Shown: positions 7,301-15,211 of the stretch, piece by piece
How the letters are laid out: every line of letters begins with the position of its first letter
Numbering within the stretch: the stretch's first letter is position 1
Assembly (NCBI GenBank): GCA_035526525.1
Contig: DATLCG010000142.1
Coordinates: forward strand, 1 to 56,403
Length of the DNA stretch: 56,403 nucleotides
Source of the DNA: Candidatus Binatia bacterium
GTDB taxonomy: Bacteria; Pseudomonadota; Gammaproteobacteria; Nevskiales; Nevskiaceae
Direction: 5' to 3'
Notes under the pieces: generated by a model
Told to the model about the DNA's origin: nothing
The model's database searches: none
The model's input: the letters and a program-made list of their open reading frames with translations, nothing else
Position numbers and translations under genes: made by a program

Positions 7301-8236
7301 ATGACCGCGCCGCTCGTGCAGATCGAGGACGTCGCCAAGACCTGGCGCGGCGGCGCGCGCGCACTCGACGGCGTTTCGCTGCAGATCGCGGAAGGCGAGA
7401 TCTTCGGCCTGCTCGGCCCCAACGGCGCCGGCAAGACCACGCTGCTGTCCATCCTGCTGGGCCTGGCGCGCAAGGATCGCGGCACGGTGCGCGTGGCCGG
7501 TCGCGACGTGGACCGGGAGCGCGCCGCGCTGCGCGCGGTGTGCGGGCTGGCGCCGCAGGACCTCGCGTTCTACCCGACCCTGACCGTGCTCGAGAACCTG
7601 CACTTCTACGCCGCCGCGGGCGGGCTGGATCGCAGCCGCCGGCGCGCACGCGTGGATGAAGCCGTCGCCCGCACGCAACTCGCCGCACACACACGCCAGC
7701 GCGCCGACCGGCTTTCCGGCGGGCTGCAGCGCCGGCTCAACCTGGCCATCGCACTGCTCGGCGCGCCGCGGCTGCTCTGTCTCGACGAGCCCACTGCCGG
7801 CGTGGACCCGCAATCGCGCGCGTTCCTGCTCGACGTCGTGCGCGAGCTGGCGCGCGGCGGCACGACCGTGGTCTACACCAGTCATTACATGGACGAGGTG
7901 CAGCAGGTCTGCTCGCAACTGGCGATCCTCGACCACGGCCGGGTGCTGGCGCAGGGACCGCTGACCGCGCTGCTGGCGGCCGATCGCGCGCTGCACGTGA
8001 CGCTGTCGGGGGCGGCGCCGCCCGCACTGATGCACGAGCTGCGTCAGCGCTTCGGCGGCGCCGAGGTCGAGGGCGCGGAGATCGCGCTGCCCGTGCAGGA
8101 CCCGCTGGCCGCCGCCGCCGGGCTGCGCGAGGTGCTGGCACGCCACGGCCTCGGGGTGGCCGCGATACGTCACGGGCATGGCGACCTGGAGGGCCTGTTC
8201 CTGCGCCTGACGCAGCGTCGGCTGCGCGACGGATGA
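7301..8236 (+). CDS. ABC transporter ATP-binding protein (ABC-2 exporter type)
   Basis: Walker A GPNGAGKTT, signature LSGGLQRRL, Walker B LLCLDEPTAGVD. Its stop overlaps the next start (ATGA). Confidence 0.92.
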   Translation: MTAPLVQIEDVAKTWRGGARALDGVSLQIAEGEIFGLLGPNGAGKTTLLSILLGLARKDRGTVRVAGRDVDRERAALRAVCGLAPQDLAFYPTLTVLENLHFYAAAGGLDRSRRRARVDEAVARTQLAAHTRQRADRLSGGLQRRLNLAIALLGAPRLLCLDEPTAGVDPQSRAFLLDVVRELARGGTTVVYTSHYMDEVQQVCSQLAILDHGRVLAQGPLTALLAADRALHVTLSGAAPPALMHELRQRFGGAEVEGAEIALPVQDPLAAAAGLREVLARHGLGVAAIRHGHGDLEGLFLRLTQRRLRDG

Positions 8237-9414
8237 ACCTGCGCATCGCGGCGCTCGCCGCCAAGGAATGGCGCATCCTGCTGCGCGACCGGCAGGGCAT
8301 GGCGGTGCTGTTTTTGATGCCCGCCGCGTTCATCCTGATCATGTCGCTGGCGCTGCGCGACGCGCTGAGCCCGACGCGCACGGGCGCGCTCACGGTCCTG
8401 TGGCTGGACCAGGACCGCTCCTATTTCGCGCTCGCGCTTTCCGATGCGCTGCAGGGTCACGCACAGCTGCAGGCCGTCAAGGACGACGCCGCGCTGCAGT
8501 CGGGGCTCGCCGCCGGCGCGGCGCCGTTCGCGGTGCGCATCGCGCCGCAGTTCGCCGCGCGCATTGCGGAGGGGCAGGGCGCGGCCCCGCTGGTGCAGGC
8601 ACTGCTGTCGCCCAGCGCGCCGCCGCAGGCCCGGCTGCTGTTCCTGGCGCAGCTGCGCGCCGCGCTGGCGCAGGTGCAGGCCGAGTGGCTGATGGAGGAC
8701 GAGATGGGGGTGCCGCACGCCGACGCCGAAAAGATGCGCGCGCGGCTGGACCCGTCGGCACTGAAGATCGAGGAGACCTACCCGGGTGCCGTGGGGCCGC
8801 CGAACGCGGTGCAGCAGGCGGTGCCGGCGTGGCTGGTGTTCGCCATGTTCTTCGTGGTGCTGCCAATCGGCGTCAGCGTGCTGGCGGAGCGCGAGCAGGG
8901 CAACCTGCGCCGGCTGTCGCTGCTGAACCTGCCGCCGGCGCTGCTGCTCGCCGGCAAGTTTCCGGCTTATTACGTGGTGAACCTGGCGCAGTTCGCGCTG
9001 ATGCTCGCGGTCGGCGTCTGGGCCGTGCCGGCGCTCGGCGGCGACCGTCTCGCGCTGGGCCACAGCCTGCCGGCATTGTGGCTGGTGGCATCGGCACTGA
9101 GCATCGCGGCCATCGGCTTCGCGCTCGCCATCGCCGTGATCGCGCGCAGCAGCGTGCAGGCGACGACCCTGGGCGGCGTCGCCAACCTGCTGCTCGGCGC
9201 CGTCGGCGGCGTCATGGTGCCGAAGCTGGTGATGCCGCCCGCGATGCAGGCCGCGTCGGTCATTTCTCCCATGTCCTGGGCCCTCGAGGCCTGCTGGGAT
9301 ATCCTGCTGCGCGGTGGCGGCGTCACCGACGTGCTGCCCGAATGCGCGGCGCTCGTGCTGTTCGGCGCCGCCGGTTTCACGGTGGCAACCCTGCTGTTCC
9401 CGACTTCCGAATGA
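8233..9414 (+). CDS. ABC-2 type transporter permease
   Basis: 393 aa. N-terminal TM, a large loop, then 5 C-terminal TM segments, as in ABC-2 family permeases. Coupled to the ATPase upstream and the ACP downstream. Confidence 0.85.
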   Translation: MNLRIAALAAKEWRILLRDRQGMAVLFLMPAAFILIMSLALRDALSPTRTGALTVLWLDQDRSYFALALSDALQGHAQLQAVKDDAALQSGLAAGAAPFAVRIAPQFAARIAEGQGAAPLVQALLSPSAPPQARLLFLAQLRAALAQVQAEWLMEDEMGVPHADAEKMRARLDPSALKIEETYPGAVGPPNAVQQAVPAWLVFAMFFVVLPIGVSVLAEREQGNLRRLSLLNLPPALLLAGKFPAYYVVNLAQFALMLAVGVWAVPALGGDRLALGHSLPALWLVASALSIAAIGFALAIAVIARSSVQATTLGGVANLLLGAVGGVMVPKLVMPPAMQAASVISPMSWALEACWDILLRGGGVTDVLPECAALVLFGAAGFTVATLLFPTSE

Positions 9415-14279: not shown

Positions 14280-15211
14280 GAGAAACGGCTGAGCCGTTCG
14301 GTGCCGCGCCCGGATGGCCGCTCGTACGCCGCCGCCTGCGCCTGCAGGCGGGCGCGCATGAGCGGTTTCAGCAGGGTGCGAATGGCGAGCGACACGGGTA
14401 CCACGGTGATGATCATCAGGACCAGGAAGGCGACGTACACCGCCAGCACCGGCCGCCGCGTCCGGGCCCCCGGCCCACCCGCAGCGGAGACGATCTTACT
14501 CCACACCCTGAAGCTCCGACGCCCGATTTTTTCACTCATGACCAGGGCGGGATCGACCTGGGCCGCCCCGAGGCCGGTGAGCACCGGGCGCTGCCCGTCC
14601 AGCGAGCCGTCGGCGAACGCCGCGGCCAGCGCGCGGCCGAAGCGGACGCTGCCGGCGACCTGGGCATCGGTGAGTCCGGCGCGCGGCAGCGAGGCGACCG
14701 CGTCGCGACGGCCGGTGAGCATCCACGCGGGCGTGGTGACCACCGTGACCAGCGTGTGGCCGGGATCGGTCAGGGCGACGTGGTCGCTGTGCCGCGCGCC
14801 GGCCCCGGCCAGCATCCGCTTCACGTCCTCCTGCGCCAGCACCCACATGTTGCGGGCCGCGGTCACGGTGACGACCGGGGTGTCGCGCAGCACCGCGCGC
14901 CCCGCTTCCGACTGCAGGAAGGCCGCGACCGGTGGCGCAGGCGACAGGAACCACGGCGTCCAGCACAGCAGCACCAGGTCGTAGCGCGCGGCGACCGACC
15001 AGGAACGCAGCGGCGGCGGCGTCAGGCGCACGCTCTCGGGGAAGGCGTCGAGAAAGCTCCAGAAGGTCCACGGGAACGGGTAGGGCGGCTGCGATTCCAG
15101 CCGCAACCAGTCCACCGTGTGGCCGGCTTCGTGCAGCGGCGCAGCGATGGCGCGCGCGACGCGCTCCAGCTGCCCGGTCTGCGAATAAAGGACGACGAGG
15201 ATCCGCTTCAT
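14276..15211 (-). CDS. darA: DarA-like protein (flavodoxin-fold N-terminus, C-terminal TM anchor)
   Basis: 311 aa. MKRILVVLYSQTGQLERVARAI flavodoxin-like start and C-terminal TM VLAVYVAFLVLMIITVVPVSLAI. Pairing with a KAS III gene matches the darA-darB arrangement. Family assignment is from memory, not searched. Confidence 0.65.
   Translation of the reverse strand: MKRILVVLYSQTGQLERVARAIAAPLHEAGHTVDWLRLESQPPYPFPWTFWSFLDAFPESVRLTPPPLRSWSVAARYDLVLLCWTPWFLSPAPPVAAFLQSEAGRAVLRDTPVVTVTAARNMWVLAQEDVKRMLAGAGARHSDHVALTDPGHTLVTVVTTPAWMLTGRRDAVASLPRAGLTDAQVAGSVRFGRALAAAFADGSLDGQRPVLTGLGAAQVDPALVMSEKIGRRSFRVWSKIVSAAGGPGARTRRPVLAVYVAFLVLMIITVVPVSLAIRTLLKPLMRARLQAQAAAYERPSGRGTERLSRFS

Follow-up and report, generated by a model that had tools for sequence, protein, structure and literature searches.

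The core of 2,5-dialkylresorcinol (DAR) biosynthesis is formed by two enzymes. DarB joins a β-ketoacyl thioester and a 2-enoyl thioester by Michael addition and Claisen condensation to give a carboxy-cyclohexanedione (PMC6836626, reviewing Fuchs 2013, Leao, Mori), which is aromatised with decarboxylation to the resorcinol by DarA (PMC6836626). The closest described relative of the locus reported here is the DAR locus of Azoarcus sp. BH72 (azo0283–0293), in which the genes are arranged in the order darK-J-C-I-(H-G)-F-E-D-B-A (PMC3949708, Table 1; Schoner et al. 2014). We compare it with nine genes at positions 7301–15211 of contig DATLCG010000142.1; the analysed stretch of 56,403 nucleotides, referred to below as the window, is a single metagenomic contig.

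The Azoarcus genes are annotated as hypothetical protein (darK), ketosynthase (KS; darJ), acyl carrier protein (ACP; darC), ABC permease (darI), ABC ATPase (darF), BtrH-like protein (darE), conserved hypothetical protein (darD), DAR cyclase (darB) and DAR aromatase (darA) (PMC3949708). The darH and darG genes are of PilT-domain and Phd (prevent-host-death) type (PMC3949708), and the pair is read here as a toxin–antitoxin insertion. Exactly these nine functions, with no insertion, are encoded by Vapar_3382–3390 of Variovorax paradoxus S110 (PMC3949708, Table S2). The Azoarcus DAR proteins gave DAR 7 in Escherichia coli; in Azoarcus itself free DAR was not detected, and the pigment arcuflavin is a xanthomonadin-like aryl polyene esterified with that DAR (PMC3949708). 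The polyene (arc) genes occupy two mutually unlinked loci, both outside the dar locus (PMC3949708); judged by locus tags, some 19 genes separate the dar locus from the nearer of them. DAR clusters, several of them nine consecutive locus tags, are also listed for Hirschia, further Variovorax strains, Aggregatibacter and others, and many are marked 'separated' from the polyene cluster (PMC3949708, Table S7).

The window encodes the same nine functions as the Azoarcus and Variovorax clusters, where the dar locus likewise stands apart from the polyene genes, and gene by gene its content corresponds to that of the published DAR clusters. It is very probably a DAR-forming locus of the known extended type. 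That it is a member of the described extended dar locus and, as a nine-gene module, builds a DAR lipid for the cell envelope is also probable, with moderate confidence. Two differences in arrangement were found: the F-I-C-J-K block is inverted, which gives two convergent operons, whereas the nine betaproteobacterial genes are collinear, and the PilT/Phd-type pair between darF and darI of Azoarcus is absent. A polyene partner locus is documented in Azoarcus, unlike here.

An earlier reading of the letters alone (the sequence-only reading) had taken the cluster for an undescribed, self-contained variant. The first part falls away, as the identical nine-gene set has been published for Azoarcus and Variovorax and linked to the DAR of arcuflavin (PMC3949708); the link concerns the whole DAR moiety, not individual roles of darD–K. 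The second part is not shown, separated DAR and polyene loci being the published norm. The cluster type has been known since 2013–2014, is represented in curated models (NCBIfam, three proteins) and is widespread and common in proteobacteria. Its abundance was also evident from a scan of one genome per species, in which 456 DarA relatives were found and 80 loci (L001–L080) were kept; these loci were compared by tblastn with the nine window proteins. Layouts were counted in the 50 loci whose sequence extends 7.5 kb or more beyond darA on its downstream side, and all nine genes were present in 35 of these.

As a discovery the locus therefore matters little, since it is an ordinary further example of a known cluster. 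What is new is modest: the CLF-type (chain-length factor) fold and Asp/Glu substitution of DarK, the helix–turn–helix (HTH)-like fold of DarD, a corrected start for DarE and a recurrent EF-hand neighbour. The value of the locus is as a clean and compact example, with nine coupled genes, no inserted toxin–antitoxin pair and polyene genes not found nearby. It is useful for asking what role the KS/CLF/ACP set plays, whether the ester bond to DAR in flexirubin-type pigments is made by the BtrH-like enzyme, what DarD does and whether the module is used by any bacteria without a polyene partner.

More distant systems share parts of the gene set. Three-gene darABC units are of the Pseudomonas aurantiaca/chlororaphis HPR type; in the example compared here, on Burkholderia pseudomallei plasmid NZ_CP009155, darA and darB are adjacent in the same order, their products are 47 and 52% identical to those of the window, and the core chemistry is the same. 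The unit differs in that the ACP is AcpP-like, in the lack of the KS/CLF pair, BtrH-like protein, DarD and ABC exporter, and in the product described for this type, which is free DAR. On the plasmid (locus L082; NZ_CP009155.1, 19650–22047) darA-darB-acpP lies between tyrosine recombinase and transposase genes; the plasmid is conjugative, a context that suggests mobility of the simple dar unit. The darA gene there bears only the annotation 'hypothetical protein'. In the flexirubin clusters of Bacteroidota (Flavobacterium johnsoniae and Chitinophaga pinensis) darA and darB are present and an ester bond joins the DAR to an aryl polyene; the NCBIfam names flexirubin DarG and BtrH-related DarH imply that homologues of the 133-residue and BtrH-like proteins occur there too. 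These clusters differ in that the dar genes usually lie inside a unit of about 37 kb with genes for tyrosine ammonia-lyase, CoA ligase, ketoreductase (KR), dehydratase (DH) and several KSs. StlC/StlD (isopropylstilbene; Photorhabdus) and BrtC/BrtD (bartolosides; Synechocystis salina) carry out the same DarB-type cyclisation and DarA-type decarboxylative aromatisation, but with other substrates or tailoring (a cinnamoyl starter; glycosylation and halogenation) and with neither a KS/CLF pair nor a BtrH-like protein. The brt cluster likewise couples DAR synthesis to a lipid exporter, but of the DevBCA and not the ABC-2 type.

Enzymes of the aromatic core and their partners

Gene identities were assessed with Pfam and NCBIfam models, and the searches agree with the assignments of the sequence-only reading (ABC_tran, ABC2_membrane_3, ketoacyl-synt, BtrH_N with DUF4872, and ACP_syn_III_C, with PP-binding just under its cut-off). 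The motifs that it had quoted (NTACSSS, KAHGTGT, VGHTLGG, GICCAG, PHYSSEY, GNVGSAS and LDSID) are all present and line up with active-site residues in the solved structures of FabF and StlD.

DarB passes the NCBIfam StlD/DarB family model NF005293 (555 bits; cut-off 450). Its match to the StlD structure (PDB entry 5gk0) scores 416 bits (E = 8.4e-124), as against 51 bits (E = 8.9e-13) for the best FabH, which bears out the earlier view that it is not a primary-metabolism FabH. Assignment of the locus to a primary-metabolism FabH/FabF set was rejected on the affinity of DarB to StlD and the coupling of darB to darA. Cys129, His307, Asn342 and Glu157 align with StlD residues, as do the PHYSS and GNxGSA motifs; Glu157 corresponds to the acidic residue Glu154 of StlD. 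The Cys, His and Asn residues are invariant in 76–78 homologues.

DarB might alternatively make a stilbene-type or non-aromatised cyclohexanedione product, as do StlD or DarA-less DarB enzymes, in which case the pathway would not lead to a resorcinol. StlD is indeed the best match of solved structure, and the narrower NCBIfam exception model 'resorcinol_DarB' (NF053539) gives 482 bits against a cut-off of 550, so that DarB is filed at family level only. The identities do not discriminate between the two outcomes, because DarB is about 52% identical to the canonical-type DarB of the B. pseudomallei plasmid and its match to StlD is of similar strength (416 bits). However, a DarA homologue is translationally coupled to DarB, and genes for phenylalanine ammonia-lyase, cinnamate ligase and a branched-chain starter were not found nearby. 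We regard a non-resorcinol product as very improbable.

For the DarA-like protein, 731 homologues were found, many with the NCBI name 'dialkylresorcinol condensing enzyme'. Across 97% of its length it shares 47% identity with the DarA of the darA-darB-acpP unit of the B. pseudomallei plasmid, a comparator known by its gene context. In Pfam and NCBIfam no curated DarA model was matched even at E values up to 10, save for weak N-terminal flavodoxin matches; no DarA model was among the hits, so this search has no power. The family profile weakly matched flavodoxin-like proteins over residues 2–103 (E = 0.013), and a hydrophobic C-terminal helix can be read directly in the sequence (VLAVYVAFLVLMIITVVPVSLAI). 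The assignment of 14276–15211 as a DarA homologue, as first proposed, is thus supported by the alignment with the canonical unit, and an aromatase function is predicted.

DarC falls just below the PP-binding cut-off (20.5 against 20.8 bits) and also below that of the phosphopantetheine-binding model NF006617 (37.9 bits). Residues Asp46, Ser47 and Asp49 are invariant in 49 homologues, and identity to the AcpP-like ACP of the three-gene unit is only 30% over 46 residues. By these sequence comparisons DarC is of a specialised type and not AcpP-like. The best PDB matches of DarJ are FabF (4r8e; E = 1.4e-31) and the aryl-polyene KS ApeO (6qsp_A; E = 7e-31), with the catalytic residues aligned and the Cys-His-His triad intact; the Cys is invariant in 54 homologues. 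A side observation concerns the first active-site His (His268; 10475–10477), which is Gln in 20 of these 54 homologues, whereas the Cys and the second His are invariant; the window DarJ keeps the His.

DarK matched nothing in Pfam, NCBIfam or the PDB by sequence or profile search, including PF13723 and any solved CLF, and profile comparisons with DarJ and with an aryl-polyene CLF were not significant; the fold is therefore settled by structure prediction alone. The AlphaFold2 model has a predicted local distance difference test (pLDDT) score of 93.4 and a thiolase fold. Foldseek matched it best to the CLF chain of the KS/CLF pair of ishigamide biosynthesis (6kxf_B; E = 8.7e-13, TM score 0.71–0.74), and ApeC (6qsp_B) was also matched. 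At the position inferred for the KS Cys, which was set by motif extension of a 17-column hhalign match to DarJ, Asp or Glu is found in 41 of 44 family members. DarK thus models as a CLF-type, Cys-less partner of DarJ with Asp in place of Cys, in keeping with the pair of a KS and a shortened KS-like protein proposed in the sequence-only reading. The DarK family comprises 1194 representative clusters at 50% identity. Neither Pfam nor NCBIfam has a model for it, and one could be made.

DarJ and DarK together fit a type II KS/CLF pair, namely an active Cys-His-His KS with a Cys-less thiolase-fold partner, for which a heterodimer and chain-length control are predicted. Comparable pairs are Iga11/Iga12 of ishigamide biosynthesis (6KXD–F) and ApeO/ApeC (6QSP): DarJ is about equally near to ApeO and FabF, the DarK model matches CLF chains best, and, as for darJ and darK, the genes of the active KS and its Cys-less partner typically lie side by side with translational coupling. 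Unlike these highly reducing type II polyketide synthases, darJ and darK are not accompanied by KR or DH genes, and DarK has Asp/Glu at the site of the KS Cys.

DarE scores 451 bits on NF053550 (DarH_acyl, the equivalog 'BtrH-related acyltransferase DarH'; cut-off 300) and matches Pfam BtrH_N (E = 2.8e-47) and DUF4872 (E = 4.4e-51). His14, Cys15 and Glu16 near the N-terminus are invariant in 70 homologues. Sequence and profile searches against solved structures gave no match. These family matches assign DarE as a putative acyltransferase of the BtrH type, with the NCBIfam name DarH. BtrH is an ACP-dependent acyltransferase.

DarD passes NF053536 ('DarG family'; 157 bits, cut-off 70) and stays below the cut-off of the flexirubin_DarG equivalog (120 against 170 bits). 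No Pfam match was obtained for the window protein, whereas PF13443 (HTH_26) was matched by one homologue. The AlphaFold2 model gives pLDDT values above 93 for residues from about 50 to 130, and the Foldseek matches of the C-terminal half are all HTH proteins of XRE type (C.BclI, C.AhdI, 434 Cro and SinR), with root-mean-square deviations of 1.5–2 Å over about 58 residues and weak E values of 0.008–0.3. The nearest NCBIfam model to DarF is the DrrA subfamily (218 bits, below its cut-off), and DarF homologues stand at the same position in at least 45 loci.

A pathway can be proposed from these assignments. DarB would form the carboxy-cyclohexanedione and DarA would decarboxylate and aromatise it to the resorcinol, both steps being established for characterised homologues. 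DarJ, with the Cys-less CLF-like DarK, may extend an acyl primer derived from fatty-acid synthesis once with malonyl-DarC. The locus contains no KR, DH or enoyl reductase (ER), and the resulting β-ketoacyl-DarC would for this reason stay unreduced as a dedicated, length-defined substrate of DarB. DarE would then transfer an ACP-bound acyl group to a resorcinol hydroxyl by means of its BtrH-type His and Cys residues. The ABC-2 exporter DarF/DarI would take the lipid out of the inner membrane, and DarD, a small HTH-like protein, might serve as a regulator or adaptor.

The same proteins can be arranged differently. DarJ, DarK and DarC could build or capture a second acyl chain, with which DarE would esterify the DAR to a non-pigment ester of the outer membrane; DarA and DarB would then draw on thioesters of primary metabolism and not on a β-keto precursor from DarJ, DarK and DarC. 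This agrees with the BtrH-type assignment of DarE by Pfam and NCBIfam, the ACP dependence of BtrH, the position of DarC as the sole ACP in the locus and its specialised sequence. Formation of DAR itself needs no private KS/CLF pair, because the three-gene darABC unit examined here lacks one and the brt cluster is reviewed as having not even a dedicated ACP (PMC6836626). However, the locus holds no KR, DH or ER that could process a chain on DarC, and in three loci of the scan (L069, L074 and L077) the module lies inside polyene clusters that supply an ACP-bound acyl donor of their own. We know of no compound of this acyl-DAR type, and an autonomous ester pathway of this kind seems distinctly unlikely.

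Predicted fate of the dialkylresorcinol and relation to aryl-polyene genes

The DAR that the nine genes are expected to form is most likely esterified to an aryl-polyene acid whose genes lie in a separate locus, on the pattern of arcuflavin and flexirubin, and not released as a free signal. Three observations support esterification: the three-gene darABC unit of the B. pseudomallei plasmid, of the type described for free-DAR producers, lacks D, E, F, I, J and K; the NCBIfam names place homologues of DarG and DarH in flexirubin clusters; and the arcuflavin table includes them. As an end product, an aryl-polyene–DAR ester is rated at a little short of an even chance; free DAR is unlikely, and another acyl-DAR rather unlikely.

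Polyene-type KS genes, defined by at least 45% identity to the KS of the Sideroxyarcus locus L077, were found within 10 kb of darA in nine loci, several of which also have CLF, DH-like or KR matches. In L077 the genes immediately upstream of darA encode, in this order, an aryl-polyene-type KS, a PF13723 CLF, a small protein, a KR, an ACP, DarJ and DarK. The Thiohalospira locus (L069) has the identical convergent nine-gene layout and, directly upstream of darA, genes for a FabA-like DH, an LpxL-type acyltransferase, a LolA-like protein, an MMPL exporter, a KS, a PF13723 CLF, a KR and a GT2 glycosyltransferase, which is the canonical arc/xan set. Since DarJ and DarK coexist with a polyene KS/CLF in L069, L074 and L077, they are taken to be DAR-specific and not polyene elongation enzymes.

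In the window itself, tblastn with polyene proteins and Pfam searches of the flanks, in which part of the open reading frames (ORFs) were scanned, gave no aryl-polyene gene, and no KR, DH or aryl-ligase gene was found near the dar locus. The earlier statement that such genes are missing nearby and that the flanks are housekeeping therefore stands. The flank of 7 kb holds uvrD, an M90 peptidase and an EF-hand protein by Pfam, with argS read from its translation. In the flank of 41 kb, purE, a resistance–nodulation–division (RND) efflux pair, an ABC system, a major facilitator superfamily transporter, tatC, a patatin-like protein and an RF-1-domain protein were identified by Pfam, yidC, rnpA and dnaA from translations, and his genes by eye. 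Such flanks do not show autonomy, because separation of DAR and polyene genes is the published norm.

These surroundings nevertheless accord with a system in which no genes beyond these nine are needed for a 2,5-dialkylresorcinol or cyclohexanedione that the ABC-2 pump secretes as a diffusible signal, antioxidant or antimicrobial, on the model of the Pseudomonas HPR or the Photorhabdus asymbiotica DARs. In its favour are the polyene genes not found in the 56 kb (part of the ORFs scanned), the unrelated flanks of the Solimonas soli locus, the dedicated exporter co-translated with the ACP, and the 39 of 50 loci that have no polyene-type KS within 10 kb. On the other hand, free DAR was undetectable and the DAR esterified in the one characterised organism with this gene set, and the published tables show that separation of DAR and polyene genes is common (PMC3949708). 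The three-gene unit examined here, of the type described for free-DAR producers, manages without BtrH-like, DarD, KS/CLF or ABC genes, and no gene for a receptor of the LuxR-solo or PauR type lies beside the locus among the annotated flanks. Secretion of a free DAR by a self-contained system is accordingly doubtful.

Several points weigh against a module that makes an envelope DAR lipid in partnership with polyene genes. Besides the negative search of the 56-kb window, a partner polyene locus has to be assumed for the source genome, and the dar locus of Solimonas soli is also among unrelated genes. Equivalence to the Azoarcus and Variovorax proteins is drawn from annotation tables and from the betaproteobacterial loci in the scan. 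The literature searched gave, for any organism, neither an experiment that assigns functions to DarD, E, F, I, J or K nor an experimental paper on what DarG or DarH does, and for ester formation the flexirubin paper proposed the ligase-like FlxW and not a BtrH-like protein. The predicted HTH fold of DarD leans on the weak Foldseek E values given above, and its 'recognition helix' is unusually conserved across taxa, which would fit a non-DNA role equally well.

A literature search for aryl-polyene or resorcinol clusters of Solimonas gave nothing specific. Nevskiales (Solimonas and Sinimarinibacterium) and the lineage of the window might have no aryl-polyene locus at all. On that reading the module, perhaps together with the neighbouring EF-hand protein, would lead by itself to an envelope lipid not yet described, either free DAR or an acyl ester of it; the Asp-type CLF DarK would set the alkyl-chain length, the BtrH-like DarE would form the ester and the HTH-like DarD would control the operons. 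We give this scheme a small chance.

Gene layout, distribution and neighbouring genes

All nine ORFs were found at the positions given in the sequence-only reading (Table 1), and its description of two convergent, translationally coupled operons was confirmed, with the correction of one start codon. The plus operon comprises the ABC ATPase, ABC-2 permease, ACP, KS and 284-residue protein genes, with 4-nt overlaps (ATGA/GTGA) at 8233–8236, 9411–9414, 9674–9677 and 10801–10804. In the minus operon (darA, darB, the 133-residue protein and the BtrH-like protein) the darA stop and darB start share 14276–14279 (TTGA), with an in-frame darB ATG 12 nt downstream; darB and darD are separated by 19 nt, and darD and darE overlap by ATGA at 12683–12686. 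The stop codons of the two operons overlap at 11652–11655.

The most likely start of darE, as judged from the sequence, is ATG 12686 (344 residues) and not the ORF-maximal GTG 12812 (386 residues). The longer form would overlap the 133-residue gene by 130 nt and the NCBIfam match starts only at its residue 52, whereas the ATG overlaps the upstream stop codon.

Table 1. Genes of the dar locus and a candidate accessory gene.
Feature	Positions	Strand	Evidence
darF-type ABC transporter ATP-binding protein, 311 aa	7301–8236	+	Pfam ABC_tran, E = 2.7e-33
darI-type ABC-2 permease, 393 aa	8233–9414	+	Pfam ABC2_membrane_3, E = 1.3e-26; ABC2_membrane, E = 9e-16
darC-type acyl carrier protein, 88 aa, Ser47 in LDSID	9411–9677	+	PP-binding, 20.5 bits; DSxD serine
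darJ-type elongating β-ketoacyl synthase, 376 aa, Cys145-His268-His305	9674–10804	+	Pfam ketoacyl-synt N and C domains
darK-type CLF-like protein, predicted catalytically dead KS partner, 284 aa	10801–11655	+	AlphaFold2 model, Foldseek
darE-type BtrH-like putative acyltransferase, 344 aa from ATG 12686	11652–12686	-	NF053550, BtrH_N, DUF4872
darD-type 133-aa protein, NCBIfam 'DarG family'	12683–13084	-	NF053536; HTH-like C-terminal model
darB, StlD/DarB-family cyclising ketosynthase, 391 aa, Cys129-His307-Asn342	13104–14279	-	NF005293; Pfam ACP_syn_III_C
darA, membrane-anchored DAR aromatase homologue, 311 aa	14276–15211	-	Homologues; synteny with darB
Candidate accessory small secreted EF-hand protein, 101 aa, divergent from darF	6954–7259	-	Translation read directly; synteny

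A scan of the window for promoters and terminators gave nothing above chance, and no Rfam match to an RNA was found in it. The G+C content is about 0.71–0.75 over the cluster and 0.64–0.77 in the remaining window (about 71% throughout the window), and this similarity gives no compositional sign of recent transfer. Inspection of the translations of 15290–24107 places the locus immediately downstream of yidC, in the origin-proximal rpmH-rnpA-yidD-yidC/dnaA-dnaN-recF-gyrB block. The dnaA-yidC-darA synteny is retained in the four nearest relatives (L001, L002, L003 and L005), with YidC and DnaA 60–75% identical. Horizontal transfer as an explanation of the position beside yidC was rejected on the uniform composition and this synteny at 60–75% protein identity.

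Among the 50 loci, the survey of gene neighbourhoods found the identical convergent order in 22, including Solimonas soli, S. variicoloris, Sinimarinibacterium, Thiohalomonas, Thiohalospira and an Ectothiorhodospiraceae isolate, and the collinear betaproteobacterial order in 13, including Rhizobacter, Methylibium, Caldimonas, Xenophilus, Uliginosibacterium and Rhodocyclaceae. The constant core across loci is darA-darB-darD-darE. The nearest relatives are uncultured Gammaproteobacteria (L001, L003 and L005), with protein identities of 61–89% but only 40–57% for the KS and CLF-like proteins. Eight proteins of the collinear betaproteobacterial loci (e.g. L078 and L061) are 32–54% identical to those of the window, and betaproteobacterial DarK is linked to gammaproteobacterial DarK through L019, L036 and L066.

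The gene divergent from darF encodes a candidate secreted protein. The N-terminus of this protein resembles a signal peptide and a DxDxDG loop resembles that of an EF-hand, both read directly, and about 40 nt separate the start codon of the gene from that of darF. A homologue lies just past darF in 11 loci (L001, L003, L005, L006, L007, L009, L014, L021, L022, L024 and L025). Solimonas soli is among these; its homologue has EF-hand Pfam matches and the remaining flanking genes differ. From this synteny the gene may be a tenth, clade-specific member of the dar locus.

Two further transport systems lie 11–21 kb from the dar locus, with no evident link to it: an RND pair (HlyD-type adaptor and AcrB-family pump; 26540–30773, minus strand) and an ABC system (ABC ATPase, ABC_transp_aux/GldG-like protein and DUF4340 protein; 32657–36653, minus strand).

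The contig of L001 (DATLBT010000129.1) is labelled 'Verrucomicrobiia bacterium', yet protein identities of 62–89% (46–48% for the KS and CLF-like proteins) and the full dnaA-yidC-dar synteny tie it to the window and to contigs that bear the label Gammaproteobacteria. Misbinning or a wrong label is probable. In L010, L011, L013 (Desulfurivibrio), L038 and L046–L048 (Verrucomicrobiota/Opitutaceae) the module is rearranged, with D/E or ABC genes reoriented, further KS genes present and DarK undetectable. From one phylum to another the gene set is rearranged around a constant darA-darB pair.

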